64,000 bases of DNA from a virus. Shown here piece after piece: positions 2,063 to 51,994 of the stretch. The notes under the pieces were generated by a model that saw only the letters and a program-made list of their open reading frames with translations, was not told the origin of the DNA and did no database searches. Location: IMG/VR virus record IMGVR_UViG_3300047550_006186, one strand, 5' to 3'. The translations under genes were made by a program, and so were the position numbers. Each line of letters begins with the position of its first letter. The stretch's first letter is position 1.

Positions 2063-3052
2063 ATGCACATGCCTTTTCAACTTCCACGTACTTTTTGTGG
2101 AGTAGCCAACTATACAAATCAACCATATGTGGTGGTGGGGGCACCCACAGACAGTGCCACCACTTTCCGCAGCGGCAGCAGGATGGGACCTGGCGCCATT
2201 CGTGATGCCAGTCTCATGCTGTGTGATGGCGAGCATGAATGGTTTCCTGTCAGTTTTGACCAAATGGTGGGTGACGCTGGTGACATGGGAATTGTCAGTG
2301 GCAACGTGCAACAAGCATTGGCCACTATCCAGGATATGCACTCCACCTTTGTGCAGAACAACAAACATGTGGTAACACTGGGTGGAGATCACAGCATAAC
2401 ACTGGCTTGTTTGCGCAGTCTATACAAAAAGCAGGGCACTATGGCAATGGTGCATTTTGATGCACATTGCGATACTTGGAGTGATCATTTTGGTGAAAAA
2501 TATGGCCATGGCACCTGGTTGCGCAATGCCATTGAAGAAGGCTTGGTTGACCCCAGGAAATGCGTGAGTGTGGGTGTCCGCAGTCCTGCAGAAAAATCTG
2601 TGAGAAAATGGTTGAGCGACCAAGGTGGCACAACCATCACTGCAAGACAGGCTGCGGGCTATACTGCAATTACACTAAGTGACATTATTGCATATGCGTG
2701 TACACATAATACACCCACTTACCTTAGTTTGGACATTGATTGTTTGGATCCAGCTTTTGCTCCAGGCACTGGCACACCTGAAATTGGTGGCTTGAGCTCC
2801 TTGTTTGTAAGTGCTATTATAGACCATTTAACACAAGTCAAATGGTGCGGTATGGATTTGGTTGAAGTAGCACCTGCATATGATCATAGCCAAATAACTG
2901 CATTGGCTGGAGCTACCTTTGTCTGGCAATATATTAGTATGCAAATTTTTCAAAATCAGAAAAAAATCAATTCAACAGTCAACTCGAAACAGATCAATCA
3001 AGAGCGTATTCAATTGTTGCCTGATTGGGTGAAAAATATGATCACATTGTGA
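2063..3052 (+). CDS. speB: Agmatinase (ureohydrolase/arginase family)
   Basis: Mn-binding ureohydrolase motifs GGDHSIT, DAHCDTW, SLDIDCLDPAFAPGTGTPEIGGLS; 329 aa. Confidence 0.8.
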   Translation: MHMPFQLPRTFCGVANYTNQPYVVVGAPTDSATTFRSGSRMGPGAIRDASLMLCDGEHEWFPVSFDQMVGDAGDMGIVSGNVQQALATIQDMHSTFVQNNKHVVTLGGDHSITLACLRSLYKKQGTMAMVHFDAHCDTWSDHFGEKYGHGTWLRNAIEEGLVDPRKCVSVGVRSPAEKSVRKWLSDQGGTTITARQAAGYTAITLSDIIAYACTHNTPTYLSLDIDCLDPAFAPGTGTPEIGGLSSLFVSAIIDHLTQVKWCGMDLVEVAPAYDHSQITALAGATFVWQYISMQIFQNQKKINSTVNSKQINQERIQLLPDWVKNMITL

Positions 3053-3074
3053 CTAGGCATAAGGATGAAACCAA

Positions 3075-3308
3075 GTGTTAACATATGAATTTGTGACTCT
3101 TTCACTATTATTTTTGACCTGTGTGATGTTGGTAGGATCAGTTGTTGGCGTCATATTGTGGCTGGCTTATCGTTTATTTTTTGCTGATCAAAGTCAGCGT
3201 TTGACAATTGTTGATAATGTTTTTATTTTCCTCACAATTGGTGTGATGGTCACTGCACTATCTTTTGGTGTGATGGTCACTGCACTATCTTTTGTGTTGG
3301 CCCATTGA
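3075..3308 (+). CDS. Small hydrophobic protein containing a 27-bp tandem duplication
   Basis: 77 aa, two TM-like segments; 3' end carries direct repeat ggtgtgatggtcactgcactatctttt x2 (VMVTALSFGVMVTALSF). Confidence 0.3.
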   Translation: MLTYEFVTLSLLFLTCVMLVGSVVGVILWLAYRLFFADQSQRLTIVDNVFIFLTIGVMVTALSFGVMVTALSFVLAH

Positions 3309-3329
3309 GCTAATATGTCAAAAAAATGG

Positions 3330-3357
3330 TTGACAATCTCAGCAACCATGCTATATT
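3330..3357 (+). promoter_or_regulatory. Sigma70-like promoter TTGACA-N16-TGcTATATT
   Basis: TTGACA 3330-3335, extended -10 TGCTATATT 3349-3357; followed by repeated GTGACATA / TTGACATGA half-sites and an 8-bp inverted repeat ttatgtca...tgacataa (3474-3498) ahead of rIIA. Confidence 0.5.
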
Positions 3358-3549
3358 GGTGACATAGAGCAAGGAATAGTTGACATGAGACTGGGTGACA
3401 AGCTCAAGCAGAGCATTGCAGATGCAGAACGAGACGCCCTGGGCGTGTGAACAATTGAAAAAAAATATTGTGTTATGTCATTTAATGAGTGACATAAGAC
3501 AATTTTATCATATTATGCATCTGTATAATACAGAGGAACTCTAGTAGTC

Positions 3550-8125: not shown

Positions 8126-9925
8126 ATGATTGAACTGAATGACCCCACTGTAATTGCACATACTGACTCACAAGCATTGAACGTTTTGTTGGCAAAAATC
8201 CAAAGACCCATTCCTGATGAATCCAAATATTTGGAACGACTGGAGCAAGAGCTCAAAATAATAGATGAACAAAACTTCAGTCCACATTTTTTGAGAGTGT
8301 TGGAAGTTTTGGACCTTACCAAAGACATACCACACATCACTAGAGGCAGTGCAGGCAGTTCACTTGTTTGTTATCTACTAGGCATAACAGATGTTGATCC
8401 AGTCAAATATGACATTCCATTGGCTAGATTTTTGAACCCCCTGCGTGATGATTTGCCCGACATTGACATAGATTTTGGTCAAAAATTTCACAAAGAAGTA
8501 TTGGAACGTATCTATCGCCACTGGCCAGGTAGAGCTGCCCGCCTCAGCAACTACGTGAAATATCGTGAAAAAAGTGCCCAAAAAGAAGCATTGAAGAGAG
8601 TGTGTGGCATCAAGGGCAAAGCTGCCAACCAACACAAGCCAGAACACCTAGTGCCCAAACACAAACACAAGGAATGGAAAAATTTATCAGAAAGGTTGTT
8701 GGGCAAAAAGAAATGTATCAGCAAGCATCCTGGCGGTGTGATTGTTTTTGACCAACCGCCTGCCAAAAGTTTGTTGTTACAAAAAGACACCCAAATCTTG
8801 CTGGACAAATATGAGTGTGAAGATCTTGCGCATTTGAAAATCGACGTGCTCAGCAACAGAGGATTGAGTGTGCTGTGGGATTGTAGTGGTCAAGGTCCGT
8901 TTGAATACAACCATGAATGCGATCAGACCCTTGCCATGCTGGCAGCAGGCAACAGTTTTGGGATCATCCAAGGAGAATCTCCCGTGATGCGGCGAACACT
9001 TCGCGCTCTCAAACCTCAAACGGTGGATGATCTCACACTTGCCACAGCATTGATTCGTCCTGCTGCCTTGACTGGTAGACAAAAGGGTGTGTTTTTTAGA
9101 GAATGGATTGGACACAATAAACAGCCTGGTGCCCTCAAACACAAGGATGGATTGGTATTTGATGAAGATGCAATTGATTTGATCTGCAAGGTATTGGATG
9201 TGGATGAGTTTGAGGCTGACATGTATCGCCGCGGATTCGTCAAGAAAAATGAAGAGATGATGTTTCAATTTTTGGAGAAGATTGGCAACCATCCACGTAG
9301 AGAAGAGATAATGTATCTGCTCAAAAACATGGATGGTTTTGGACTATGCAAAGCCCACAGTGTGAATCTGGGTAGGTTGGTATATGCTCAAGCTTGGGAA
9401 AAACAGCACAATCCTCAAAAGTTTTGGTTGGCTGCTCTACAAAACGCATGCAGCATGTATAGACCCTGGGTGCATATTGAACACGCAAAATCAGCTGGCT
9501 GGCAAATACAGGGCAAGAAACGACCCTGGCTGGTCAAAAACAACATATTATACAATGAAAATTGGCAAGTTCCTTTGTTTGACAGCCATTGGGATCAATT
9601 GGCACACATGGGATTTTGGACACACAAGTCTTGGATACCAGGCACCTATTATCAACAAATGGGCACCACAGCAGCATTTTGTGGAATAATTGCTGCACAC
9701 AGAATTTATCATTGTGGCCAAGGAGAGTTTGTTACTTTTGCCACATTGGGCACAGGTGCTGGTGAATTTTTGGAAGTTGTTTTGCCAGGTATGATCAATG
9801 TCAAAAATACAGCTTTTGTGGAAGGCATGGGAGAAGTGGAAGTCAAAAACAACAACACTGTTATATATACTAGAACATTTGAAACATTGTCCACAAGAGA
9901 ACATGCTAAGCACCACGACAAGTGA
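8126..9925 (+). CDS. dnaE: Minimal DnaE-like (C-family) DNA polymerase catalytic core, lacking PHP and C-terminal accessory domains
   Basis: Matches Pol III alpha palm/fingers motifs: RGSAGSSLVCYLLGITDVDP (DnaE [20 protein letters not shown]), ARFLNPLRDDLPDIDIDF (ERFLNPERVSMPDFDVDF), KHPGGVIV, LKIDVLSNRGLSVL, DGFGLCKAHSVNLG; only 599 aa. Confidence 0.7.
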   Translation: MIELNDPTVIAHTDSQALNVLLAKIQRPIPDESKYLERLEQELKIIDEQNFSPHFLRVLEVLDLTKDIPHITRGSAGSSLVCYLLGITDVDPVKYDIPLARFLNPLRDDLPDIDIDFGQKFHKEVLERIYRHWPGRAARLSNYVKYREKSAQKEALKRVCGIKGKAANQHKPEHLVPKHKHKEWKNLSERLLGKKKCISKHPGGVIVFDQPPAKSLLLQKDTQILLDKYECEDLAHLKIDVLSNRGLSVLWDCSGQGPFEYNHECDQTLAMLAAGNSFGIIQGESPVMRRTLRALKPQTVDDLTLATALIRPAALTGRQKGVFFREWIGHNKQPGALKHKDGLVFDEDAIDLICKVLDVDEFEADMYRRGFVKKNEEMMFQFLEKIGNHPRREEIMYLLKNMDGFGLCKAHSVNLGRLVYAQAWEKQHNPQKFWLAALQNACSMYRPWVHIEHAKSAGWQIQGKKRPWLVKNNILYNENWQVPLFDSHWDQLAHMGFWTHKSWIPGTYYQQMGTTAAFCGIIAAHRIYHCGQGEFVTFATLGTGAGEFLEVVLPGMINVKNTAFVEGMGEVEVKNNNTVIYTRTFETLSTREHAKHHDK

Positions 9926-10020
9926 ACTACTGTTGGTTTTTAGGGCGTGGTAGTTCACTATGCGTTTCGCAGCAGCATATTTGAAAATTGGCTGAATTCG
10001 TATTTTGACATCAAAAAGAG

Positions 10021-12805: not shown

Positions 12806-12814
12806 TTTTTTTGG

Positions 12815-12842
12815 TTGACAGCCATACTAAACCTGCTATAAT
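12815..12842 (+). promoter_or_regulatory. Sigma70-like promoter TTGACA-N16-TGcTATAAT
   Basis: Perfect consensus hexamers plus extended -10; promoter + 5'UTR (about 50 bp) duplicated at 13303. Confidence 0.6.
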
Positions 12843-12869
12843 GGGCACACCAAGCAAGGAACACTGAAC

Positions 12870-13289
12870 ATGAGCAACAAGCTGACGGTTGGCGACGTAT
12901 TTGAAGCCTGCAATGGCATGCGGGTGTATGGTATGATCCCCAAGCATTTTGCCTACGCCAACAGGGCTAACGATCCCACGCCCGCTCATTGTGAGCTGAC
13001 GGTGGGAGAAATCAAGAGTCGCGACAGCCATACCTTGGACCTTGGTTACCTCAAGGGCCTGTATGTGGTGGAGCATGCTGCCTCAAAGGGCGGTGGCACT
13101 GGCCATGGGCCTCATGACATCTACCCGGATGGTTGGCACATTCGTGCCCGCAAGCTCAAGGCTGATAGCAGCTACGACCCTCATGGTGTTGAGATTGATT
13201 TCTACCAGAGCGGTTCCTTCACGGTGGTGAACCCGACTGTGCCTGTAGTGGGCAAGCTTCACCGCAAGGTGGATTTTGTGGCTGAGTAG
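12870..13289 (+). CDS. Hypothetical protein (139 aa)
   Basis: ATG 28 nt after -10; ORF track 12870..13289. Confidence 0.5.
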   Translation: MSNKLTVGDVFEACNGMRVYGMIPKHFAYANRANDPTPAHCELTVGEIKSRDSHTLDLGYLKGLYVVEHAASKGGGTGHGPHDIYPDGWHIRARKLKADSSYDPHGVEIDFYQSGSFTVVNPTVPVVGKLHRKVDFVAE

Positions 13290-13302
13290 CCAAAAATTCT
13301 GG

Positions 13303-13330
13303 TTGACATTCCCTCCAAACCTGCTATAAT
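13303..13330 (+). promoter_or_regulatory. Sigma70-like promoter TTGACA-N16-TGcTATAAT (duplicate of 12815 promoter/UTR)
   Basis: aacctgctataatgggcacaccaagcaaggaa(c/t)actgaacatgagcaa shared with 12828-12877. Confidence 0.6.
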
Positions 13331-13357
13331 GGGCACACCAAGCAAGGAATACTGAAC

Positions 13358-13798
13358 ATGAGCAAACCCAACCCCACCAAGCGGATTGCCACCAAGCATA
13401 TTGATAAGGTGGTGATGATCAGGGACGAGAGCGATGAGCGGGAGCTGCTGGCGTTTGAGAACGCCGATGCAGCCAGCCTCTTTGAGGGCTGCCTCAACGA
13501 CAGCGGCTATGGTAGTGCCTATGGTGGCTATGAGGTAGAGTGGCCCAGCATGGATGATGTGCGCAAGACAAGGGGCTATGAGGACTGGCTCAAGAACGGA
13601 CAGCGTGTGATCAGCCTCGCTTACATGAACTACGTGAGCGAGCGCATGGACGCTGACGAAGAGTGCGATGCCAGCTACCTGCTCAACATGGAAATGGTCA
13701 AGGACGGCTATGCGCCAATGAGCCTCGCGGACTGGGAAACGCTGTATCCAGAGGAGTGCGAGGACACTGACGAAGCTGAAGAAGTTTTTTGTGATTGA
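13358..13798 (+). CDS. Hypothetical acidic protein (146 aa)
   Basis: ORF track; D/E-rich C-terminus. Confidence 0.5.
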   Translation: MSKPNPTKRIATKHIDKVVMIRDESDERELLAFENADAASLFEGCLNDSGYGSAYGGYEVEWPSMDDVRKTRGYEDWLKNGQRVISLAYMNYVSERMDADEECDASYLLNMEMVKDGYAPMSLADWETLYPEECEDTDEAEEVFCD

Positions 13799-15033: not shown

Positions 15034-15801
15034 ATGAGCAAGGTCATCGTTGAGCGTCCCCGGATCGGGGGCAAGCTGGTCCGCAAGGGGCGGCGCATCG
15101 ACGACGACCTCCAGGTTAGCCACGAGGGCATGCGTGCCCCCTACGTTCGCCACTACAACAACAAGGAGCTCAACGAGAACCTGGCACCACTGCTGCGCTT
15201 CCTGGACTCCCGGGTTGGCCGGCGGTGGGACGACGTTTACAGCGAGATCTGCAAGAACATCCGCCCCGACAGCACCGTGCAGCAGCACGTCCTGGTCCAC
15301 GTCAAACAATTCGTGAATACCCACGTCCGCCGCAACGGGGACGGAGAGCTCTGGGACTACGATGGCCGTCCCGGACCGCTCAGTAGTTGGTCCCGGTTCT
15401 ACGTCGATCCGGATAGCGGCATCCTCACGCGCAATCCCAATCGGCAGGGCTGGTCCGCCCAGCGACGCGAGTACCGCCGGGAAAAAGAAGCCGAGCGTTT
15501 GGCCATCGAGCGTCGGCTGCCGGACGGCACCGACGTGCGGAAGCACGGTGGCATTTGGTACGCTGGTGTGCGCAAGGAGGTCCCTGCCCCTGTGAAGCGC
15601 ACCAGGATCGCCGTCGACGGCAGCACCAGGGAATACCTCGAGGGTGGCGAGGTGTACGACTACTTCCTCGAGGTCCTCGTTCGCCACCCCCAGCTTCCCC
15701 GCAAGAGCTGGGGCAACGCGGTCACCGCCTCCCACTATTACGCTAGCAAGCGCCAGCTCAACAGCGCTGAGCTCCGGAGGCACGGCCTGGAGAACGATTG
15801 A
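15034..15801 (+). CDS. Hypothetical protein on a high-GC island (255 aa)
   Basis: About 62% GC; MSKVIVERPRIGGKLVRKGRR...; antisense ORFs here are GC artefacts. Confidence 0.5.
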   Translation: MSKVIVERPRIGGKLVRKGRRIDDDLQVSHEGMRAPYVRHYNNKELNENLAPLLRFLDSRVGRRWDDVYSEICKNIRPDSTVQQHVLVHVKQFVNTHVRRNGDGELWDYDGRPGPLSSWSRFYVDPDSGILTRNPNRQGWSAQRREYRREKEAERLAIERRLPDGTDVRKHGGIWYAGVRKEVPAPVKRTRIAVDGSTREYLEGGEVYDYFLEVLVRHPQLPRKSWGNAVTASHYYASKRQLNSAELRRHGLEND

Positions 15802-15814
15802 CATGCTGTGATGT

Positions 15815-15995
15815 GAACTATCACCCCCCCTCTAGGGCTGTAGCTGGCTGCTTGATCGTAGTGGCTGACAGCAGACCCCAATGAGTGAGAATACCTGTGA
15901 CCACATCCACAGGCGCAAGAGCCAGTTCCTTCCCCACATGATCTATATTCCACGGTTGATGTCCCCAGTTCTTGATGTTGATGGCTGCATATGAC
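15815..15995 (-). mobile_element. Solo right-end + 3' tnpB remnant of IS200/IS605-family element A
   Basis: gtgaactatcacc...ctagggctgtagctggctgcttgatcgtagtggctgaca...ccacaggcgc...tgatgtccccagtt matches RE/3' region of copies at 39711, 50165, 25004. Confidence 0.5.
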
Positions 15996-25003: not shown

Positions 25004-25581
25004 GTGAACTACCACGCCCTAAAGGTCTGTGGCTTCCTGCTTAATCGTAGTGGCTGACATCTCACCCCAATGAGTGAGAATATCTGTCATCACATCCACA
25101 GGCGCTTGGGGCAGTTCCTGCCCTGCATGATCTATTGTCCATTGTTGATGTCCCCAGTTGCGGATGTTCACTGCTGCATTCGTGTCCCTGTGCTGAGTGA
25201 TTCCACATTCATCGCAATGATATTCTCTTTGCTTGAGATCCATGTGACTTTTGCGGGTGCCACATGCACTACAGGTCTTGCTACTGGGTAGCCACTGATT
25301 GATCTTGACAAGATAGTGGCCTTGCATTTGGCATTTGTAGGCCAATGCACCAATCAACATAGCCCAACTGGCATCAGCTATGCACTTGGCTGCGGGCTTG
25401 CTTTTTCTTTTCATCTCATCAATTTTCAGTGTTTCAACTGACACCAGGTCATGTGATTTGGCTATTCTCGCACTTGTCTGATCCTATAGCGATATCGCTG
25501 TTTTATAAATCTATTTGTATAATCTATTCAAAAAGCCGCTATCCATCCAGGGGCTAAAGCACCCTGGCTTTCCGCGGCGGG
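25004..25581 (-). mobile_element. Internally deleted (about 580 bp) copy of IS200/IS605-family element A
   Basis: RE (gtgaactaccacgccctaaagg...), 3' 430 bp of tnpB and LE (ccgctatccatccagg...ttccgcggcggg) with junction tctgat|cctatagcgatatcgctg. Confidence 0.6.
25019..25444 (-). pseudogene. tnpB: TnpB C-terminal fragment (141 aa)
   Basis: About 90% identical to C-terminus of TnpB copies at 39727 and 50182 (zinc-finger CSACGTRKSH...CDECG). Confidence 0.6.
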
Positions 25582-25595
25582 AGATAAGTAATTGT

Positions 25596-28496: not shown

Positions 28497-28742
28497 ATGC
28501 GTAAACGTATTATGGGGTCTACCTCTGCTCAAGCCAAAAAACCTGCCAATAAAACTCTAGTGTATTGTACTCTCAATGATAGCAAATGCAAGGGACTGAT
28601 TGTTCTCAAAACTGAATATCAGCTCACAGTACAAATGCCCACTGGGTGTGTTTTGCACATGGTTCGCCCACAAGGACGCAAACTGTATGTGTGTTATGCA
28701 GGTCAACTGGAATTTGTCAGTGATGGATGGGCTACAACCTAG
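28497..28742 (+). CDS. Hypothetical small basic protein (81 aa)
   Basis: ATG in frame of ORF 28314..28742; preceded by perfect palindrome gtgcaatat-tat-atattgcac (28468-28488). Confidence 0.35.
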   Translation: MRKRIMGSTSAQAKKPANKTLVYCTLNDSKCKGLIVLKTEYQLTVQMPTGCVLHMVRPQGRKLYVCYAGQLEFVSDGWATT

Positions 28743-28783
28743 TGAACTACCACACCCTAATGGTGTGGTAGTTCACTCAGTGT
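28741..28783. repeat. GTGAACTACCAC palindromic repeat (15-bp perfect hairpin)
   Basis: gtgaactaccacacc-ctaat-ggtgtggtagttcac; family shared with IS element A right end. Confidence 0.6.
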
Positions 28784-30078: not shown

Positions 30079-30379
30079 CTGCGAGCGGAAGACCACTGGC
30101 TTGTCAAGCCAGTGGATGGATAGCGAGTGGATAAATTATTTTTGATATATTGCATTTCTTTCAATTTCACAGCATAAATAAGCTGTCACTTTAACAAGTG
30201 GACTAGGGCAGGAAGTGCCCAGTACGCCTGTGGAGTCCGATCAGACCTGTGGGGCTGGTGGTTGTGCTAGGACGCACATAAAACCCCAGAAATGGGGCAC
30301 GCGATAACCAAGCACACAAACCCCACGGGCAAGGACTACGACGCAGGAAGCTACAGTCCTTTAGGGCGTAGTACTTCAC
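30079..30379 (+). mobile_element. About 300-bp MITE related to IS element A (diverged LE + shared interior + RE)
   Basis: gcgagcggaagaccactgg...gccagtggatggatagcgag (LE-like), interior ggactagggcaggaagtgcc, RE cgcaggaagctacagtcctttagggcgtagtacttcac. Confidence 0.45.
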
Positions 30380-30438
30380 ATCGCTCAATTGACTGTGTTC
30401 GATTCACAGCAGACCCACCATTTTTTCATAAGTAGCTG

Positions 30439-31044: not shown

Positions 31045-31201
31045 ATAAGCAAATGGCAATGACTTTTGCACAAGTTAAAGAAAACAAACTGGTCAGACGT
31101 TTGACACTGATTGGGTCAGTGTGTGGAGCCCTCATGGCAATCTACAACTTTGGCGATGTATGGGACAAACTGGGTCTTCCCAGACCAATTTTTGTTCAAG
31201 A

Positions 31202-31644
31202 GTATTACATATTTTCATTCATTTCGCAAGTGTTTGTATGCAATTATTAAAAACCAATAAAAGATACATATGATTACCTATTTGGCTGATTCCTTGAATT
31301 CAAGGAAATCAATTTAGACTACTTGATTCAGTTATAAATCATTGGGGTAGACGAAATCAATTCTGGCGAGTGGGCTTGGCCCAGCAACGGATAGAACATG
31401 CATGCGAAGAAAACGGCGTCCGGTTAACTCGCGTACATGCAGCATACACATCGCAAACTTGCAGTGCATGCGGGGTCAAACACAAGCAATCGCGCCAAGG
31501 CGAACGATTCTCGTGTTTGAGTTGTGGATATGAAGTAGATGCCGACTTGAATGGCGCTATCAATATCCGCAACAGAGGAGCATATAGTCCCTCTGTTAAA
31601 AAAATATAAGATCATTTATAGAAATATATGATCTCAATAACTAT
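31202..31644 (+). mobile_element. Internally deleted copy of IS200/IS605-family element B
   Basis: LE (gtattacatattttcattcatttcgcaag...) and RE (...aacagagggactatatgctcctctgtt...ctcaataactat) identical to element at 48641-50029 in inverse orientation; retains only last 79 codons of tnpB. Confidence 0.6.
31370..31609 (+). pseudogene. tnpB: TnpB C-terminal fragment (79 aa)
   Basis: 77/79 identical to C-terminus of ORF 48676..49794. Confidence 0.6.
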
Positions 31645-35177: not shown

Positions 35178-35190
35178 ATTACACTAGGTG

Positions 35191-35232
35191 TACTACTGTT
35201 GGTCTAAAGACCAACAGTAGTACACCGAAAAA
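35191..35232. repeat. Perfect 19-bp-stem palindrome (variant of GTGAACTAC repeat family)
   Basis: ggtgtactactgttggtct-aa-agaccaacagtagtacacc. Confidence 0.55.
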
Positions 35233-35377: not shown

Positions 35378-36694
35378 CTAGTACAAACAAGCAGCGATAG
35401 CATAAATCAGTATCCCGCTCTTTGTAGATGAAAATCTAGAAACAGCACTCGTTACCGAACTCAGCTGAACACGATACTTCAATTTCGCGTTTTTGATCGA
35501 GTTGTGAAAATCAACCCATGAAGTGATTTTGGTGATATCAAGCCCGTCTTTCTTCCATTGATTCAGTGGTTTGATGTCATCCAACTTCAGTGGCGGATAC
35601 ATACACAGTGATTTTTGATATTTGTAGTTGACCCTACGGGCGATTTCCCAGGCCGCGGCACAGGGGTCAGGTAGTTCCGAATGCAAGAGGTTACCAATTG
35701 TGCTCGAGTAAGCGCAGTTGACCTCGGTTACTTCAATGCCCAGTTGATCCGATAGTTTTGTGATAGTCCATTGAAATAGCTCCCTATTCCATTGGTTGTT
35801 GACCAACCTGTTGAAGTTGCGACCTTTTTTGGCATCTCTGGCACCCATTGTTAGCTGTTCGATGCCAATTTCGCTAACTCGATAATGCCTAGCCAATCGA
35901 ATGATTGCGTGAGCTATTTCCTTGGTCTCGTGATCTCGCTTGTTGTCATCAACTCTTGATTCTTTGCTCCAAGCGTAAACCTTTGATTTGACTAGATGTT
36001 CTCGTCCATCTTTGAAATCAATTATTGTGATACCAATATAATTTGGGTTTTGGTCAATGCCCATTATGCGATAGTTCAAATGGTTAAGGATTATTGGTTG
36101 TTTTTCTTGTTCGAAACTCAAATAAATTTGACCTCTCTTGAGTTGGACTTGAATTGGGATTGATCCAATATTGTTAATCAGATGCTGGATTTGTTTGCGT
36201 TGATTGCGACCAACTTGAAATGGGATTTCGACTCTTGTGTGTTTATTTGGCTTGTAGATCAAAATATCGTCAGCTAACTTACTGAAATCAAACAATCTAT
36301 TTGACTTTTGAACAGCTTCGCCTTGTAGCATCATTGGTCTGAGTCGCAGTTGGTGCCATTCGGATGTGGTGATTTTCCCACTAGATCGCTTGAAAAAATT
36401 GGCTCTGCTGCCCCACACAATTTTGGCAGATTTGCGTTGACCTGATTTGATCTGTGATTGGTGCGCTGCATATTGGGTTTGTGCATCTAGGATCGCACAT
36501 TGAGCTATCCAGGAATTCACCGAGTCTTCGTTGTTGGATTTAGGATTTGACCATCTCTCTTTGACCAGAGATCTGATTTCTTTTTGCTTCAACCCTTGGC
36601 TAGTTCGCTCGTAAGCATACCGAAATATTGCAGAGTACTGCAATTGATAGGGCAAAAGCACAATCGGCGTTGAAAGTTTGAGTGTGGTAATCAT
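35378..36694 (-). CDS. tnpB: IS607-family TnpB (OrfB)
   Basis: 438 aa; RuvC-like/zinc-finger C-terminus, IS607-type accessory protein adjacent to serine recombinase. Confidence 0.65.
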   Translation of the reverse strand: MITTLKLSTPIVLLPYQLQYSAIFRYAYERTSQGLKQKEIRSLVKERWSNPKSNNEDSVNSWIAQCAILDAQTQYAAHQSQIKSGQRKSAKIVWGSRANFFKRSSGKITTSEWHQLRLRPMMLQGEAVQKSNRLFDFSKLADDILIYKPNKHTRVEIPFQVGRNQRKQIQHLINNIGSIPIQVQLKRGQIYLSFEQEKQPIILNHLNYRIMGIDQNPNYIGITIIDFKDGREHLVKSKVYAWSKESRVDDNKRDHETKEIAHAIIRLARHYRVSEIGIEQLTMGARDAKKGRNFNRLVNNQWNRELFQWTITKLSDQLGIEVTEVNCAYSSTIGNLLHSELPDPCAAAWEIARRVNYKYQKSLCMYPPLKLDDIKPLNQWKKDGLDITKITSWVDFHNSIKNAKLKYRVQLSSVTSAVSRFSSTKSGILIYAIAACLY

Positions 36695-36707
36695 TATTGC
36701 TACTTAT

Positions 36708-37310
36708 TTATGCTTGTTCTGTAGAAACCGCATCAATTAGGCATTTTTTTGCGCTTTTTAGTACTTTGCGTCTATTGCTGTACATCTTCATTGAGAAATG
36801 ATGAATGATTGAAATTAGATCTTGTGTCAATTCAGTTTCAAACGGAGTTATCTCGGCGTCATTTATGACAACAATTTTTGTGTTATATCGATCGAATAGT
36901 CTGGTGAAATAATCAAAACCAAATCGAGTAAGTCGATCTCGATATGTCACATAGACTGTGTCTACATTACCGGACATAACTAGATCCAATAACTCATTGA
37001 ATCCTTTACGATTTTCGTTCATGCCGCTGGCTATATCACTGATCGTCTGAACTGGATATCCTTGTTTAATAACAAAGTCTTGCACCAATTGCTGTTGACT
37101 AATAAGATCAGACTCCTGTTTCTTGTCACTGACTCGAGTGTAAGCTACGTGTATCCTCGGTCCTGATGTTGATTTGATTTCTGGGTAATAGAGATAACTG
37201 CTCTTCCCGACCCTAATGAAGTCAACTGTGTTGTTAATTCGCCAGTTCCGCAAAGTCTGTTTGCTAATGGCATATTTTTTCATAAATTGGCGTGCTGTGA
37301 TATATTTCAT
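36708..37310 (-). CDS. tnpA: IS607-family serine recombinase (TnpA) with N-terminal MerR-like HTH
   Basis: MerR-like HTH (ISKQTLRNWRINN) + resolvase catalytic domain (AYTRVSDKKQ...VYVTYRDRLTRFG). Confidence 0.75.
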   Translation of the reverse strand: MKYITARQFMKKYAISKQTLRNWRINNTVDFIRVGKSSYLYYPEIKSTSGPRIHVAYTRVSDKKQESDLISQQQLVQDFVIKQGYPVQTISDIASGMNENRKGFNELLDLVMSGNVDTVYVTYRDRLTRFGFDYFTRLFDRYNTKIVVINDAEITPFETELTQDLISIIHHFSMKMYSNRRKVLKSAKKCLIDAVSTEQA

Positions 37311-37359: not shown

Positions 37360-38286
37360 ATGGAACAAGAAGGTGAATCACAAGTGGATGGAAAAAAAGA
37401 TAGAGCACTGGGAGCCTTTGTGGGCTTGGCAGTTGGTGATGCACTAGGCGCACCCGTGGAATTTAAAGAACCTGGAGAATTTTCTCCAGTCAAGGATTAT
37501 GCCTACAGCTATGTGTGGCAAATACCACCCGGCTATTGGACAGATGACACCAGCATGGCTGTGTGTTTGGCCGAAAGCATCCTACACAAGAATGATGTGC
37601 TGCCAGACGACATTTTGCAGAGGTTTGTACGCTGGTATGTTCATGGTGAGAACAGCCCTACCGGTAGATGTTTTGATATCGGCAGCACAACCAGAAGCAA
37701 TATCAAGCGTTACATTGACCAAGGAGTATATACACCTGCTCCCAACATTGCGTGGCAGAGTGGCAACGGTGGTATAATGAGATTGAGCCCCGTTGCAGTT
37801 AGATACTGGCAGGATCCAGAACTGGCTGCTGAGTTGAGCATTGTGCAAAGCCAAACAACTCATGGAAGTGATGAATGTGTCAAATGCGCCGCAGATTTGG
37901 GAAAGCTTTTGGCAAGAGCTATTCAAGGACAGCTAATTTGGCAAGAACTAGTTGATCAGCTAGGACAAATTTCTACCAACCAGATCAGCAACAGCGGGCA
38001 AGCCAGCACAACCTTGTTGGCAGCCAAATGGTGTGTGGCTACCACAAGCAATTTTGAAGATGCTGTGTGCAAAGCTGTGAATTTGGGTGGCGATGCTGAC
38101 ACAATTGGGGCTGTGACTGGCCAGATAGCTGGTGGCATTTATGGCTTGAATAGTATTCCAGAACGATGGAAACAAGGACTATATGATTATGCAAGGTTGT
38201 TGGATCTTGCTCAGAGGTTGTTTGATAAAGAATACCACAGGGGCGGGTGTTGGCTGGCTTTCCGCGGCAGCCCCCAAGACCCATGA
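37360..38286 (+). CDS. ADP-ribosylglycohydrolase (ARH/DraG family)
   Basis: GAFVGLAVGDALG, TDDTSM, GGDADTIGAVTGQIAGGIYG. Confidence 0.8.
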   Translation: MEQEGESQVDGKKDRALGAFVGLAVGDALGAPVEFKEPGEFSPVKDYAYSYVWQIPPGYWTDDTSMAVCLAESILHKNDVLPDDILQRFVRWYVHGENSPTGRCFDIGSTTRSNIKRYIDQGVYTPAPNIAWQSGNGGIMRLSPVAVRYWQDPELAAELSIVQSQTTHGSDECVKCAADLGKLLARAIQGQLIWQELVDQLGQISTNQISNSGQASTTLLAAKWCVATTSNFEDAVCKAVNLGGDADTIGAVTGQIAGGIYGLNSIPERWKQGLYDYARLLDLAQRLFDKEYHRGGCWLAFRGSPQDP

Positions 38287-39204: not shown

Positions 39205-39331
39205 GGATCTTCCTTGAGGGTTGACTTGAGTGAACTACCACGCCCTAAAAGGATATGTCTTCAACAAAAAGTCTACCATAAATATTTAGGAGATACACTC
39301 CCACATCAATGTTATCAATAGGTTAGCGCAA

Positions 39332-39706
39332 ATGCCTCTCACACACAAGGACCAACAGTTATGGAACGCTGTGATCAAAGATGTGCAACCTCTGGATAGT
39401 GTGCAAATAGCACGTCAAGACAATGCCCCGTCCAGAAAAATTGTACCTAGAAAACCTCCCAATCACCCTACTGTGGATTTGCATGGTCTGACTTTGGCGG
39501 ATGCGCATGCTCGTATCCAAGATCATTTGCATGAGACCAAACAATCCTACAAATTTGTCACAATCATCACCGGCAAAAGTGGACAGTTAAGACAAGATGT
39601 GCCCAGATGGATTGAACATATGCCAGGAGTGCGCAAGATTGATCCAGCTGAAGACCTGGGCAGTGTGAAAGTTTGGTTCAAGAACACTCGGCAAAAGAAC
39701 AAATAG
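39332..39706 (+). CDS. Smr-domain protein
   Basis: VDLHGLTLADAHARIQDHL...VTIITGKSG. Confidence 0.7.
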   Translation: MPLTHKDQQLWNAVIKDVQPLDSVQIARQDNAPSRKIVPRKPPNHPTVDLHGLTLADAHARIQDHLHETKQSYKFVTIITGKSGQLRQDVPRWIEHMPGVRKIDPAEDLGSVKVWFKNTRQKNK

Positions 39707-39710
39707 GTGA

Positions 39711-40996
39711 TGTGAACTACCACGCCCTAAAGGGCTGTGGCTTCCTGCTTCATCGTAGTGGCTGATATCTCACCCCAATGGGTGAGAATATCTGCCATCA
39801 CATCCACAGGCGCTTGGGGCAGTTCCTGCCCTGCATGATCTATTGTCCATTGTTGATGTCCCCAGTTGCGAATATTGATGGCTGCATTCGTGTCTCTGTG
39901 CTGTGTTGTGCCGCAGGCGTCGCAATGGTATTCTCGCTGAGCGAGGTCCATGTGACTTTTGCGGGTGCCACATGCACTACAGGTCTTGCTGCTGGGTAGC
40001 CACTGATTGATCTTGACAAGATGATGACCTTGCCTTTGGCACTTGTAGGCCAATGCACCAATCAACATAGCCCAATCCGCATCTGCTATGGCCTTGGCTG
40101 TGGCCTTGCTCTTGCGTCTCATCTCATCAATTTTCAGTGTTTCAACACACACCAGGTCATGTGATTTGGCTATTCTCGCACTTGTCTGATGTATATGGTT
40201 AGTTCTTTGGCAGCGAACCAGATCATGGGTTCGGGCCAGTTTTTGTTTTGCTTTTGTTCTATTCCTACTTGCTTTTTGTTTTCTGGATAGCTTGCGTTGT
40301 AACTGTTTGATACGTGCTTGTTTCTTCCCCAATGGCTTGGGATTTGCAACTAGCTCACCAGTTGATAGTGCTGTGAATTTGCTGTTGACATCCACACCCA
40401 CTGGGTTGGTTATGTTTTGAACCAATGGCAATTCAGTCACATCAACCACAAATGAGGCATACCAACCACCTGGTGTTTGAATCACAGTCACACCCTTAAA
40501 CTTGGGAAGATCTCGATGGAGTACAATCTTGATATCACCAATCTTGGGTAGATATAGCTTGTTGTTGTCAACTCTCACGTTTTGTTGATATCTAAAACTT
40601 ATAGGAGTTGTGTATTTGCTTTTGAACCGTGGGAATCCAGCACCTGTCTTTTTCATATTTTTCAGTGCTGTATCCAAGTCACTTATGCTCTGTTGTAGTA
40701 CTTGACTGTAGGTATCTGATAACCATTTGTTGTGTTTCTTCAATTCAGTCAGTTGTTTGCACATATCAAACTGCCAAACAAACTTTTTAGTATTGGCATA
40801 TTCATCAATGTTGATCTTGAGGAAATGATTGTATAGATATCGCACTGCTCCGCCCACAGAACGCATGTGTTGTTCCTGTTGTGGGGTTGGATAAATTCTA
40901 TAGCGATATCGCTGTTTCATAAATCAATTGATATAATCTATTCAAAAAGCCGCTATCCATCCAGGGCCTAAAGGCGCCTGGCTTTCCGCGGCGGGA
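39711..40996 (-). mobile_element. IS200/IS605-family element A, copy 1 (tnpB only, no tnpA)
   Basis: RE gtgaactaccacgccctaaagggctgtggcttcctgcttcatcgtagtggctgatatctcacc; LE ...ccgctatccatccagggcctaaaggcgcctggctttccgcggcggg; near-identical to copies at 50165 and 63009. Confidence 0.75.
39727..40920 (-). CDS. tnpB: TnpB (IS605 OrfB family, RuvC-like + Zn finger)
   Basis: 397 aa; MKQRYRYRIYPT N-terminus, C-terminal CSACG...CDACG zinc finger; 3 near-identical copies. Confidence 0.85.
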   Translation of the reverse strand: MKQRYRYRIYPTPQQEQHMRSVGGAVRYLYNHFLKINIDEYANTKKFVWQFDMCKQLTELKKHNKWLSDTYSQVLQQSISDLDTALKNMKKTGAGFPRFKSKYTTPISFRYQQNVRVDNNKLYLPKIGDIKIVLHRDLPKFKGVTVIQTPGGWYASFVVDVTELPLVQNITNPVGVDVNSKFTALSTGELVANPKPLGKKQARIKQLQRKLSRKQKASRNRTKAKQKLARTHDLVRCQRTNHIHQTSARIAKSHDLVCVETLKIDEMRRKSKATAKAIADADWAMLIGALAYKCQRQGHHLVKINQWLPSSKTCSACGTRKSHMDLAQREYHCDACGTTQHRDTNAAINIRNWGHQQWTIDHAGQELPQAPVDVMADILTHWGEISATTMKQEATAL

Positions 40997-41301
40997 GATA
41001 ATTATCAATAACTATGCAGGTGCAGCATAGCGGCTATTGCGCCACGTCACCAACGTGACTTTCATGGGTTGGAGACCCATCGTCTGCTCCACTCTTTTCT
41101 ATCTTAAATAGTTGCATGAAAATCCATGAACTGCTCAAAGCCCCAACTATTAGAAGCGTGACCACTCGCAGTGGGCAGATTGATCGTCGCCGCGCAGAAA
41201 GGGTGGAAGATCCCAGGGGATATTTTGCCAAGGCCAGCAGTCCTCTTATGCCCAAACGCAAAAAATAGATATTTCTCTCAAGGTTTCCTGTGTCTTACCT
41301 C

Positions 41302-41610
41302 CTGCCGCGGAAAGCCAGGCGCCTATAGCCCCTGGAGGGATAGCGGCTTGTGACACAACTATTTTTTTTTGAATCTGGTTGCATTTGTGTTAACCTCTAT
41401 GTATAAACAATATTAGTGATGTAGCAAGAGTCCCAACGGGCTTGGGATATCCGGACAGCAATACCGCAGGGACTAGGGCAGGAAGTGCCACGAGTCCGTA
41501 AAAAATATCGCCAGTGGACCAGAACACACACCAATGAATAAGTCCATTGGCTAAAGGTGAATTGGAATCTAGCAGGAAGCCACAGCCCTTTAGGGCGTGT
41601 GGTACTTCAC
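41302..41610 (+). mobile_element. About 310-bp MITE derived from IS element A (LE + short interior + RE)
   Basis: cctgccgcggaaagccaggcgcc...ggatagcgg (LE) ... ggactagggcaggaagtgcc ... agcaggaagccacagccctttagggcgtgtggtacttcac (RE). Confidence 0.5.
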
Positions 41611-41688
41611 AGTAGAGACACTTGACTTGGTCTACCAACAACTGTTGTTGAATACAGTTCAATTTTTTTAAAATGAAAGGAAACTACA

Positions 41689-44718: not shown

Positions 44719-44757
44719 TCGTGAACTACCACGCAGAGCGTGGTAGTTCACTCAGCT
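44719..44757. repeat. GTGAACTACCAC palindromic repeat (14-bp stem) between convergent genes
   Basis: gtgaactaccacgc-agag-gcgtggtagttcac. Confidence 0.55.
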
Positions 44758-48640: not shown

Positions 48641-50029
48641 ATAGTTATTGAGATCATATATTTCTATAACTGATCTTATATTTTTTTAACAGAGGGACTA
48701 TATGCTCCTCTGTTGCGGATATTGATAGCGCCATTCAAGTGGGCATCTACTTCATATCCACAACTCAAACACGAGAATCTTTCGCCTTGGCGTGATTGCT
48801 TGTGTTTGACCCCGCATGCACTGCAAGTTTGCGATGTGTATGCTGCATGTACGCGAGTTAACCGGACGCCGTTCTCTTCGCATGCATGTTCTATCCTTTG
48901 CTGGGCCAAGCCCACTCGCCAGAATTGATTTCGTCTACCCCATTTGTTACCTTGCTTGATTTCACTCAAATCTTCCATGACCAAATGGCTGAGTTGATCC
49001 CAAGGTATATCGTTTTTGATGGAGTAGTTTATTTGGTTTTTGAGTTCAGTTCTTGCCCTTGCATGAGATTTGCTGCGTTGCTTGCGACGGGCAATAACTT
49101 CCAATATGTCTTTAATTGGTCTACCAGTTGTATGGGTAGTTTCTATGTTGCCGTTGGAACAAGTGACCAACTTGTTTCTGCCCATGTCCACACCCATGAT
49201 GGCCTGGTTGCATCGCAAGGCTACATCTTTCACAAAATAAATTCCTAGACTACCATCTGAATTAACACGCAAACAATTGGTTTTCATGACAAAACCACGT
49301 CGCATTAGGTCTTGCATGTGACGTGTGGGTGTGAATGGGATGAAATAACTACCACGAGGAAATGATGTGATCTTGATCCAGTGACTGGCAATCTTGCTTG
49401 TTTTGTTGGGTTGTATGTCAATAAATCTTGAATCTAGCTCAATGTTCACTGAGTTAATGTCAATGGACAAGCTTTTGTTGTTCCATTTGTCTAATATTTC
49501 TTGTTGGTATTTTTGTAGGTTGCTGGCTTTTTGAGCCAATTTAACTTTCTCTTGAATTGATCTGACCACTGCACTGGCTTGTTTGGCACACACCTGGCTC
49601 AACCGAGATGGCAATTGTATCTGATCAGTAACGTCTTTGTTCGCAAATTTGGTTATTTTATCTTGATATAACTGGTGATCAACTAGTTTTTGTAGTTCTT
49701 GTCTATAGATATCAAACGGCTGCATCAACATCAAGTGTTTGATGTGATTGGCTAGTTTGGGTCTGTAGGTTGATATCCTAGTAATCTTTGGCATTTGTTG
49801 TATTATTTATGTTTTATCATCAATCAATTGATGATTATTAGTAATGTCACACATATGATAATATATTTTAATTTAAGGCCCATTTAATGGTTTATAACTG
49901 AATCAAGTAGTCTAAATTGATTTCCCTGAATTCAAGGAGTCAGCCAAATAGGTAATCATATGTGTAATTTATTGGTTTTTAATAATTGCATACAAACACT
50001 TGCGAAATGAATGAAAATATGTAATACTT
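48641..50029 (-). mobile_element. IS200/IS605-family element B (tnpB only), full copy
   Basis: Ends defined by comparison with deleted copy at 31202-31644. Confidence 0.7.
48676..49794 (-). CDS. tnpB: TnpB (IS605 OrfB family), second subfamily
   Basis: 372 aa; C-terminal TSQTCSACG...CLSCG zinc finger + RuvC-like motifs. Confidence 0.8.
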   Translation of the reverse strand: MPKITRISTYRPKLANHIKHLMLMQPFDIYRQELQKLVDHQLYQDKITKFANKDVTDQIQLPSRLSQVCAKQASAVVRSIQEKVKLAQKASNLQKYQQEILDKWNNKSLSIDINSVNIELDSRFIDIQPNKTSKIASHWIKITSFPRGSYFIPFTPTRHMQDLMRRGFVMKTNCLRVNSDGSLGIYFVKDVALRCNQAIMGVDMGRNKLVTCSNGNIETTHTTGRPIKDILEVIARRKQRSKSHARARTELKNQINYSIKNDIPWDQLSHLVMEDLSEIKQGNKWGRRNQFWRVGLAQQRIEHACEENGVRLTRVHAAYTSQTCSACGVKHKQSRQGERFSCLSCGYEVDAHLNGAINIRNRGAYSPSVKKI

Positions 50030-50164
50030 CCAACGTTAACGAGCTTTGGAAATTCTTTTTGCTATTTTCACTAGCCAACATCAACCGGCAATTCACAGGA
50101 TGGCCCAATAACAATGGATGAATATTCAAATTCATTCCATTCCTTACACTTAAGATATGATCTC

Positions 50165-51451
50165 TAGTGAACTACCACGCCCTAAAGGGCTGTGGCTTCC
50201 TGCTTCATCGTGCTGGCTGATATCTCACCCCAATTGGCGAGAATATCTGCCATCACATCCACAGGCGCTTGGGGCAGTTCCTGCCCTGCATGATCTATTG
50301 TCCATTGTTGATGTCCCCAGTTGCGGATGTTCACTGCTGCATTCGTGTCCCTGTGCTGAGTGGTTCCGCAATGATCACAATGATATTCTCTTTGCTTGAG
50401 ATCCATGTGACTTTTGCGTGCACCACATGAGGAGCAGGTCTTGCTACTGGGTAGCCACTGATTGATCTTGACAAGATGATGGCCTTGCCTTTGACATTTG
50501 TAGGCCAATGCACCAATCAACATAGCCCAGCCAGCATCAGCTATACACTTGGCTGCGGGCTTGCTTTTTCTTTTCATCTCATCAATTTTCAGTGTTTCAA
50601 CACACACCAGGTCATGTGATTTGGCTATTCTCGCACTTGTCTGATGTATATGGTCGAGTCTTTGGCAGCGAACCAGATCATAGGTTCTTGCCAGTCGTGT
50701 TTTTGCTTTCAGTCTATTCCTACTTGCTTTTTGTTTTCTGGATAGCTTGCGTTGTAACTGTTTGATACGTGCTTGTTTCTTCACCAATGGCTTGGGATTT
50801 GCAACTAGCTCACCAGTTGATAGTGCTGTGAATTTGCTGTTGACATCCACCCCTACCGGGTTGGTTATGTTTTGAACCAATGGCAGTTCCAAGACATCAA
50901 CCACAAATGAGGCATACCAACCACGTGGTGTTTGAATCACAGTCACACCCTTGAATGTGGGTAGATCTCGATGGAGCACAATCTTGATATCACCAATCTT
51001 GGGTAGATATAGCTTGTTGTTGTCAACTCGAACATTTTGTTGATATCTAAAGCTAACAGGAGTTGTGTATTTGCTTTTGAATTTGGGGAATCCAGCACCT
51101 GTTTTCTTGATATTTTTCAGTGCTGTATCCAAGTCACTTATGCTTTGTTGTAGCACTTGACTGTAGGTATCTGATAACCACGGGTTGTGTTTCTTCAATT
51201 CAGTCAGTTGTTTGCACATGTCAAACTGCCAAACAAATTTTTTGTTCAATTGATATTCATCAATGTTTACACGTAGGAAATGGTTGTATAGATATCGCAC
51301 TGCTCCGCCCACAGAACGCATCTGTTGTTCTTGAGCAGGGGTTGGATAAATCCTATAGCGATATCGCTGTTTCATAAATCTATTTATATAATCTATTCAA
51401 ACAGCCGCTATCCATCCAGGGCCTAAAGGCGCCTGGCTTTCCGCGGCGGGA
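50165..51451 (-). mobile_element. IS200/IS605-family element A, copy 2
   Basis: Same RE/LE as copy at 39711-40996. Confidence 0.75.
50182..51375 (-). CDS. tnpB: TnpB (element A copy 2)
   Basis: About 93% identical to ORF 39727..40920. Confidence 0.85.
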   Translation of the reverse strand: MKQRYRYRIYPTPAQEQQMRSVGGAVRYLYNHFLRVNIDEYQLNKKFVWQFDMCKQLTELKKHNPWLSDTYSQVLQQSISDLDTALKNIKKTGAGFPKFKSKYTTPVSFRYQQNVRVDNNKLYLPKIGDIKIVLHRDLPTFKGVTVIQTPRGWYASFVVDVLELPLVQNITNPVGVDVNSKFTALSTGELVANPKPLVKKQARIKQLQRKLSRKQKASRNRLKAKTRLARTYDLVRCQRLDHIHQTSARIAKSHDLVCVETLKIDEMKRKSKPAAKCIADAGWAMLIGALAYKCQRQGHHLVKINQWLPSSKTCSSCGARKSHMDLKQREYHCDHCGTTQHRDTNAAVNIRNWGHQQWTIDHAGQELPQAPVDVMADILANWGEISASTMKQEATAL

Positions 51452-51994
51452 GGTAACTCCATTTGTATTGAGTGGCAAAGTTGATCTACCACCACATGAA
51501 TACCATCCATAAACTTTAAGTAGGTTCAAATCCATTATGCTAGGGTAGCACTGGACATCAAATTTGAATGCAGCAAGCGAGTAATAAATCTCCTTGAAGG
51601 TTCTTGTAGGTATTTCATTATTATTGTTGAATCTAGATAGTATAGTCTTTCTTTGTTTATTCCTACTTTGTTGCGATCGATGAATATTGGTAATCCGTGA
51701 GGCGCATGAATTACTGCAATATTTCGCTTTCGACTTGTGAAAGGATTCCCAAGTGATACTGTCTCCGCAAGCAATGCATTTGTTAGGATCCATATCATAG
51801 ATTAGTTTTTGTTGAGCATAAGATGCTTGTGATCTGATTTTCTGATTGCGAGCATTCTCTCTATTGCAGCAGGTCAAATTACAATATTTCTTTGATCCCT
51901 TGGGCAAAGGTTTACCACATTCTCTATAATGGCAAAATAAGATATCTTGAGTTGTTGACTGATCAAAAAATTGTGAGTAAATATTATCAGACAT
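51380..51994 (-). CDS. Zinc-ribbon-rich protein whose 3' end runs into the IS left end (C-terminal tail encoded by LE)
   Basis: Multiple CxxC pairs; C-terminal RRGKPGAFRPWMDSGCLNRLYK is the translation of the IS LE. Confidence 0.4.
   Translation of the reverse strand: MSDNIYSQFFDQSTTQDILFCHYRECGKPLPKGSKKYCNLTCCNRENARNQKIRSQASYAQQKLIYDMDPNKCIACGDSITWESFHKSKAKYCSNSCASRITNIHRSQQSRNKQRKTILSRFNNNNEIPTRTFKEIYYSLAAFKFDVQCYPSIMDLNLLKVYGWYSCGGRSTLPLNTNGVTSRRGKPGAFRPWMDSGCLNRLYK

Follow-up and report, generated by a model that had tools for sequence, protein, structure and literature searches.

What keeps TnpB under selection where no transposase accompanies it, and does RNA-guided homing operate between phage genomes? 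Both questions are raised by a viral record, IMGVR_UViG_3300047550_006186, one stretch of which (64 kb, hereafter the window, with positions counted over the whole stretch) contains several copies of an insertion sequence (IS) encoding TnpB only, the reference one being designated copy A. Judged by their sequence features, these elements are non-autonomous members of the IS605 group (IS200/IS605 family) with IS608-type target; they represent a well-preserved family and not a new kind of system, and the known workings of such elements are left unchanged by the findings. Quite probably, these tnpB-only elements are mobilised in trans by a Y1 TnpA, and cleavage of empty TTAY sites (Y is T or C) by TnpB together with its omega-RNA would add to their retention or homing. 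Many diverged intact copies, an autonomous parent and RNA-only derivatives make the family a natural data set for the two questions, and its compact TnpB of 397 amino acids (aa), a predicted scaffold of ~150 nucleotides (nt) and a short predicted transposon-adjacent motif (TAM), TTAY, make it a candidate editor.

Element Copies, Their Ends and Target Sites

Copies were searched for by BLAST of region 39401-41300 against the window, and element boundaries were set where homology stops across at least 17 independent copies aligned with their flanks, later together with about 20 relatives. Segment 39712-41001 matches 50167-51456 (copy B) with 90.5% identity over 1292 nt, and 40004-40995 matches 64000-63009 on the opposite strand (copy C) with 90.7% identity over 994 nt, the other matches being located at 25004-25590, 15808-15990 (183 nt, 81%), 41295-41349, 41571-41611 and 30340-30382. 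The preliminary description of this DNA had recognized three highly similar tnpB-only copies of the IS200/IS605 family along with deletion derivatives, and both statements hold, the latter being represented by derivative D, a miniature element, remnant E and a right-end remnant of 37 nt (Table 1); the copies are where it placed them, with exact boundaries off by one base. Each full copy contains a single gene, coding for a 397-aa TnpB.

The left end begins with CTCCCGCCGCGG immediately after TTAT or TTAC, while the right end terminates with GGGCGTGGTAGTTCAC 15 nt past the tnpB stop codon, which itself lies in the hairpin loop. In the window elements the right end finishes with TAGTTCAC, and across the family the finish is always (T/C)AGTTCAC followed by unrelated flanking sequence. 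TTAC or TTAT stands 5′ of the left end in 16 of 17 independent insertions (CTAC in the remaining one), no target-site duplication is seen, flanks past the right end are unrelated, and subterminal imperfect hairpins conserved with compensatory changes are present at both ends, which lack terminal inverted repeats, as in the members of the IS605 group. The end motifs appeared by chance in none of 100 shuffles of the sequence. In silico removal of positions 2461-4209 from a related locus (L002, IMG/VR contig 3300047550_005931) joins the flanks as one open reading frame (ORF) of 2430 nt with zero duplicated bases, therefore indicating precise insertion of IS605 type. IS608 inserts 3′ of TTAC, and its right end finishes with TCAA. 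The elements resemble IS608 and the IS605 group (Helicobacter pylori; Y1 TnpA plus TnpB) in their position 3′ of TTAC, the lack of target duplication and the subterminal imperfect hairpins, and differ in that the window copies lack tnpA, are phage-borne and have TCAC at the right end.

Insertions fall both next to and inside genes. Copy A lies 5 nt beyond the stop codon of an Smr-domain gene, whose 3′ end, on the opposite strand, constitutes the guide-position flank of this copy; copy B is inserted within a gene, towards the 3′ end of ORF 51380-51994, where it replaces the last ~69 codons, and the element of L002 splits a helicase-like gene.

Table 1. Elements of the tnpB-only family in the window and the parts of copy A
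Feature	Position	Strand	Details
Copy A, full tnpB-only IS605-group element	39712-40997	-	1286 nt; ends from homology stops
tnpB of copy A, 397 aa	39727-40920	-	Pfam, ISDra2 alignment, NCBIfam
Left end of copy A	40921-40997	-	subterminal hairpin CCAGGCGCC-TTTA-GGCCCTGG
Target / predicted TAM of copy A, TTAT	40998-41001	-	adjoins left end
Predicted omega-RNA scaffold of copy A, ~153 nt	39712-39864	-	synonymous suppression, covariation, sub-threshold RAGATH-18 match
Right-end subterminal hairpin of copy A	39720-39741	-	inside predicted scaffold
Guide-position flank of copy A, ATCACCTATTTGTTCTTTTG	39692-39711	-	directly 3′ of right end; putative guide role, from known TnpB mechanism
Copy B, full element	50167-51452	-	tnpB 50182-51375 (397 aa); TTAC 51453-51456; guide-position flank 50147-50166
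Copy C	63007-64000	+	TTAC 63003-63006; tnpB start 63084; cut by window end at TnpB residue 305
Derivative D	25004-25583	-	704-nt internal deletion; TTAT 25584-25587
Miniature (PATE-like) derivative	41299-41610	+	TTAC 41295-41298; left-end and right-end hairpins only
Remnant E	15813-15990	-	last ~178 nt, i.e. omega-RNA region and right end; 81% identical
Right-end hairpin remnant, 37 nt	30343-30379	+	BLAST

Shortened elements retain different parts of the full one. In derivative D, ~103 nt of the left end are fused to the last 479 nt of the element, so that tnpB is destroyed (its start codon being changed from ATG to ATA) and the omega-RNA region is intact and 94% identical. The miniature element consists of 51 nt of the left end, ~220 nt and ~40 nt of the right end, and is inverted 300 nt away from copy A; retaining the end hairpins only, it is similar to the palindrome-associated transposable elements (PATEs) and miniature inverted-repeat transposable elements (MITEs) derived from IS200/IS605. 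Upstream of remnant E no left end is detectable, local alignment being no better than that of shuffles. The full copies, with tnpB alone between IS605-type ends, are like IS1341-type tnpB-only elements, unlike which a direct autonomous counterpart can be identified here in L002.

Two minor observations concern the element ends. Remnant E (15990) and a deletion derivative on another contig (L005b, L005:1168) share their start nucleotide, ATGCAGC, ~176 nt from the right-end terminus, which could mark either the 5′ limit of an RNA module or a deletion hotspot. Outside the elements, the left-end core GCCGCGGAAAGCCAG has isolated matches of 15-16 nt at 38254-38268 of the window, 55 nt from tRNA-Leu, and at L029:6149-6164, which may be left-end remnants.

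Transposase Genes in Related Elements

No Y1 TnpA was found in the 64 kb of the window by phmmer --max with two TnpA seeds. The preliminary description had reported the lack of cognate tnpA, which is correct for the Y1 type, and had overlooked an IS607-family serine-recombinase tnpA at 36708-37310 (minus strand; NCBIfam equivalog, 158 bits with cutoff of 110). The latter belongs to a unit separate from the elements considered here (family 1), which do not group with IS607.

The Y1 enzyme is encoded by relatives. In L002, TTAC is followed by the left end, a gene for a 143-aa Y1 TnpA, tnpB overlapping the tnpA stop codon and the same right end; this TnpA contains HVHLL and YIENQ motifs and matches TnpA of phage YS40 with E 3e-20, its TnpB is 89% identical, and nucleotide identity over tnpB and right end is 86%. 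Pfam Y1_Tnp was also found immediately upstream of the more distant homologues P0060 (64%), P0042 (68%) and P0082 (57%); among the distant homologues bearing it, one is located on a 459-kb contig and one beside a phage-lysozyme protein. Adjacent intact Y1 tnpA is thus present in L002, L195, L197 and P0082 (by Pfam Y1_Tnp in the last three), and is lacking in all window copies, in loci L001-L029 except L002 and, by gene table, in L196. The preliminary description considered that intact tnpA adjacent in the full genome would mean an ordinary autonomous IS; such genes accompany the relatives named above, which comes close to this condition, and none is present in this window. The presence of Y1 TnpA in relatives and its absence from the window therefore argue that the window copies are non-autonomous members of the group, the order tnpA(Y1)-tnpB in autonomous relatives being that of the IS605 group. 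Homologues of the TnpA share no more than 68% identity and are scattered over taxa.

TnpB and Its Conservation

TnpBs of copies A and B comprise the Pfam domains HTH_OrfB_IS605, OrfB_IS605 and Cas12f1-like_TNB; that of copy A scores 294 bits with the NCBIfam model guided_TnpB (cutoff 100), and the family is closer to IS200_TnpB (301 bits) than to IS607_TnpB (183 bits). TnpB of copy A aligns with ISDra2 TnpB (8BF8/8EXA/8H1J) over residues 5-352 (E 1e-50), including the RuvC residues D (GVDVN), E (VCVETL) and D (HRDTNAA) and both CxxC pairs of the zinc finger. The D-E-D triad and the zinc finger are also present in copy B, and copy C ends after RuvC-II at the window end, so the possibility of RuvC inactivation in all copies, which had been raised earlier, is answered by the intact triads of A and B. 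Domain order, RuvC triad, zinc finger and a predicted guide RNA extending over the tnpB 3′ end to the right-end boundary are shared with the TnpB-omegaRNA system of ISDra2, which differs in its TAM (TTGAT, PMC8612924, vs. predicted TTAY here), in scaffold sequence, unrelated at the level tested, and in that a C-terminal tail of 45 aa is here encoded over the RNA.

The ratio of nonsynonymous to synonymous divergence (dN/dS) among copies A, B and C is 0.12-0.19 with dS of 0.27-0.39, and all full copies keep intact ORFs; their earlier characterization as active-looking was therefore justified. These residues and substitution rates mark TnpB as catalytically intact and as a target of purifying selection. 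The nearest relatives of copies A and B are not one another but L001 (92.7%) and L004 (94.0%), respectively, and copy C is a mosaic of A-like and B-like segments. This looks like an old recombining pool; dS of ~0.3 between copies, as well as the fixation of one copy at a single locus in many samples, does not look like a recent burst. A further feature of tnpB reported earlier, a perfect palindrome of 14 nt in its first codons, is in fact 12 nt long (AGCGATATCGCT) and is missing from copy C; as a conserved site it was rejected, being a by-product of codons with alternating purines and pyrimidines (R-Y-R-Y).

Predicted Omega-RNA Scaffold

The right-end hairpin had been suggested to be the omega-RNA scaffold. 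Its overlap with the 3′ end of tnpB and the right end stands, while the hairpin proves to be only the last stem of a predicted structure of ~150 nt, running from TGGGGAC to the right-end finish and overlapping the last ~46 tnpB codons. Synonymous substitutions are suppressed there: among the window copies dS drops to 0.03 over the last 47 codons of tnpB, 4 of the last 146 nt distinguish copy A from copy B vs. ~10.5% elsewhere, and the invariant residues of ten full-length relatives (protein identity in the wider set ranging over 57-92%) show a synonymous difference of 0.14-0.17 over residues 361-397 vs. ~0.34 overall. In L007 and L008 (IMG/VR 3300034121_001426 and 3300042319_001418) an in-frame TAG occurs 15 codons before the usual stop and the nucleotides downstream are still conserved, therefore the constraint at this place is not on protein, and the two loci are a natural separation of protein from RNA constraint.

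RNAalifold applied to 16 representatives, with 500 shuffles and slid-partner controls, gave a structure of ~150 nt with 41 pairs, in which 92.8% of cells are paired vs. 82.8% in shuffles. Compensatory changes were registered in 21 of 41 pairs vs. 13.1 ± 1.7 in shuffled alignments (21 being reached in 0 of 500), and the covariation score of 0.334 compares with 0.168 after shuffling (0 of 500) and with at most 0.08 when the partners were slid. The stem of the terminal hairpin is fully swapped in three versions, CCACAGCCC/GGGCGTGG, CUGUUGGUC/GACCAACAG and AUUUUGAG/CUCAAAAU, and several G-U pairs are invariant, hence the fold is specific to the tnpB-sense strand. Its covarying helices include a GGGCAG/CUGCCC stem, a CCUGU/GCAGG stem and the terminal hairpin. 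In silico, this constitutes a convincing predicted scaffold of omega-RNA type, which overlaps with the 3′ end of tnpB and stops at the right-end boundary.

Comparison with covariance models had been suggested as a check in the preliminary description. At gathering thresholds Rfam recognizes only four tRNAs in the window, and below the threshold there is a match to RAGATH-18 (RF03064) with 19.7, 20.3 and 20.0 bits in three members of the family vs. the gathering value of 44.9. In copy A it covers 39742-39810; it recurs at the same position in the three members with common closing sequences CCUGUGGA...GAUGAAGCAGGAA. RAGATH-18 is the guide-RNA core of a set of IS607 TnpBs, and the same closing-helix sequences are found in the right-end RNA (reRNA) of this origin, as in ISFba1 (PMC11061315), at the place that corresponds to the predicted scaffold core. 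Unlike IS607 reRNA, which does not overlap the ORF (PMC11061315), the RNA predicted here does; the partner transposase in relatives is of Y1 and not serine type, and the 3′ flank is ~30 nt vs. ~60 nt.

Guides, Homing and Alternative Explanations

Variable guide-like sequences, expected earlier just beyond the right ends, are indeed there: the guide-position sequence differs at every copy and, within the window, matches its own flank only, with no match next to TTAY elsewhere in the window. The flank of remnant E (15797-15812) coincides in 14 of 16 bases with the first codons of the IS607 tnpA (37286-37301) with no preceding TTAY, which is probably a chance match (~0.03 expected for one guide). 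At occupied loci, the guide-position sequence is preceded by TCAC and not TTAY.

The following steps are drawn from established TnpB biology (Karvelis 2021, PMC8612924; PMC10690162; PMC10278001). TnpB would process the tnpB transcript into omega-RNA, with the ~150-nt structure as scaffold and 16-20 nt directly beyond the right end as guide, and the complex would cut the element-free locus, where TTAY directly precedes the flank, the occupied locus being spared because TCAC stands there instead. Repair of the break from the occupied copy would restore the element after excision or copy it into the empty allele. For a phage genome, an element-free allele would naturally be offered by a co-infecting relative or by a sister replication copy, which would make TnpB comparable in action to a free-standing homing endonuclease. 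To reach a new site, the element would require Y1 TnpA in trans, supplied by an autonomous copy outside the window or by another co-resident genome, and derivative D, perhaps also remnant E, possessing the omega-RNA module only, could borrow TnpB in trans. Phages recombine freely during co-infection; since, moreover, tnpA is missing from most copies and TnpB is conserved, TnpA-independent homing into empty alleles seems a plausible extra driver. Cutting of an element-free co-infecting allele with repair that copies the element is known for the T-even homing endonucleases SegF and Mob, in which recognition is performed by protein and not guided by RNA, and resembles the "transposon non-restorative homing" that a review describes for phages as a theoretical category (PMC13565253).

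Several points weigh against the proposed combination of mobilisation in trans and cleavage of empty sites. Besides the lack of Y1 TnpA in the window, no promoter-like site was revealed in the left end by consensus scan, and no pairs of occupied and empty alleles were recovered for the window copies from IMG/VR via neighboring proteins, the Smr gene giving nothing and a 204-aa ORF only another left-end copy. A possible empty site in the window, corresponding to the one at which L009-L012 flank a derivative, was rejected as not clean, the two differing by ~3 kb. Membership in RAGATH-18 was likewise rejected, ~20 bits being far from the threshold of 44.9, and the match is taken as resemblance. 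TnpA, too, is expected to bind the terminal hairpin as DNA, so the covariation of this hairpin could equally reflect recognition of single-stranded DNA; omega-RNA, TAM and guide are predictions throughout, and the contigs of 340-490 kb with homologues are called phage-like on gene content alone.

An explanation by transposition alone would regard the copies as recent hitch-hikers moved by Y1 TnpA of host or phage, with TnpB being merely restorative after excision and having no role between phages. Autonomous tnpA-bearing relatives do exist, MITE-like derivatives with both ends intact imply mobilisation in trans, and restoration after excision is the established role of bacterial TnpB (PMC10690162); nevertheless, TnpB remains under purifying selection although tnpA is missing from most copies, the copies are old (dS ~0.3) with one fixed at the same locus in many samples, and the reference bacterial genomes searched contain no close relative. 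We regard this explanation as possible, yet rather doubtful. About as tentative is a homing drive of TnpB and omega-RNA restricted to phages, which would spread between co-infecting large phages mostly without TnpA, with D and E parasitising TnpB in trans and the palindromic hairpins described below arising as by-product or as an offshoot similar to repetitive extragenic palindromes (REP).

That TnpB serves the phage, e.g. by attacking host or rival phages under RNA guidance or by regulating in the RNA-guided manner of TldR, looks improbable. Exapted TnpBs are known (PMC10705468), the lineage looks phage-restricted, and purifying selection acts on TnpB without adjacent tnpA, but transposon ends and TTAY target are fully kept, the guides (compared within the window) differ from copy to copy and match only their own flank, genes are interrupted by insertions, and decayed derivatives are scattered as for a selfish element. 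TldR or another nuclease-dead exapted TnpB was rejected, as catalytic residues and both ends are intact, the former fact in itself arguing against a TldR-like protein. Gene-interrupting insertions and own-flank guides are habits of selfish elements, with no sign of domestication, and the same set of features (full ends, retained TTAY, own-flank guides, interrupted genes) speaks against the preliminary suggestion that the loci are more than passenger IS. Still less credible is that the copies are decaying inactive relics in which the conserved 3′ region serves only as TnpA-binding DNA signal: the window indeed lacks a family tnpA and a recognizable promoter and several copies are truncated, while dN/dS of 0.12-0.19 extends across 397 codons, full copies retain intact ORFs, and covariation embraces ~150 nt, well beyond the ~30-nt TnpA hairpin, including sense-strand G-U pairs.

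Phage Context and Neighboring Features

Genes of the window include rIIA and rIIB (PHROG, E 1e-131 and 2e-69), a fragment of DNA polymerase III (Pol III) alpha subunit, a virion structural protein, NAMPT, a sigma-70-type factor and four tRNAs. The best rIIA relatives are 32-35% identical, and a nucleotide search of INPHARED gave no match for the element in distant mode and a single chance-like match of 90 nt for the first 24 kb in near mode, the phage being absent from this collection; the window belongs to a novel, probably large phage genome. Close relatives of the element and those with 69-75% identity were found in IMG/VR and metagenome contigs, the assemblies of which often break within elements, and homologues with 57-75% identity are located on contigs 340, 409, 459 and 493 kb long, with sampled genes that are phage-like and rich in ORFans. 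One homologue locus contains two copies ~1 kb apart, and in at least 17 contigs from many samples the same genes border one copy, which is fixed there. Peptide patterns that did recover relatives of 69-73% in viral contigs detected no close TnpB relative among 185,579 reference genomes of bacteria and archaea. The family has dispersed through a clade of uncultivated phage-like genomes, some of them huge.

Abundance of TnpB loci had been considered unusual for a phage. Three families of OMEGA type (obligate mobile element-guided activity) in 64 kb are a high density, common however to related contigs, and the presence of TnpB as such is not unusual: homologues occur in 404 of 50,697 phage records, the nearest, including those of Helicobacter prophages, being ~35% identical, and TnpB is frequently phage-encoded (PMC12607003). 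The tnpB of cyanophage A-1(L) is likewise phage-borne and tnpB-only; it is identical to host chromosomal copies, pointing to recent capture (bioRxiv 10.64898/2026.02.14.705889), whereas here no close bacterial relative was found and TnpB is 10-45% diverged among viral and phage-like contigs.

Two other units related to TnpB are situated nearby. The IS607 tnpA forms with a 438-aa ORF, 14 nt further, the unit 35378-37310 (minus strand); this ORF gives a weak TnpB-related match (TIGR01766, 27 bits, below cutoff), lacks the zinc finger, has no PDB or PHROG match and could represent a strongly diverged TnpB. Another TnpB IS, unrelated to family 1, occupies 48641-50028 (minus strand), 139 nt from copy B; its tnpB (48676-49794, 372 aa) retains the RuvC residues, its right end finishes with AATAACTAT, unlike family 1, and its internally deleted derivative of 445 nt with 96-98% identity is located at 31201-31644 (plus strand).

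Among other observations, the ORF 8126-9925 (plus strand, 599 aa) has, of Pol III alpha, the NTPase and finger domains only, as would a replicase that is split or truncated, and the stop codon of this ORF falls within a hairpin at 9922-9958. The ORF 58961-61492 (plus strand, 843 aa) contains shoulder and repeat domains of the major vault protein (Pfam, E 4e-20), unusual for a phage. A repeat unit of ~69 nt at 3324-3392, 12809-12877 and 13297-13365 includes promoters of the consensus TTGACA-N17-TATAAT, probably those of early phage genes. Finally, four near-perfect palindromic hairpins are found at 9922-9958, 28742-28776, 35188-35225 and 44721-44751, with a half-site at 39230-39249. In each, one arm corresponds to the last 14-16 nt of the right end of family 1 and the other to the reverse complement of this stretch (GTGAACTACCACGC...GCGTGGTAGTTCAC), one of the four having the right-end stem of L007 type (CTGTTGGTC...GACCAACAG) and one being a hybrid of both types. 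Candidate origins are a REP-like offshoot, terminators or collapsed inverted pairs of right ends; three of these hairpins adjoin the 3′ ends of genes, and ~137 kb of related loci contain none.

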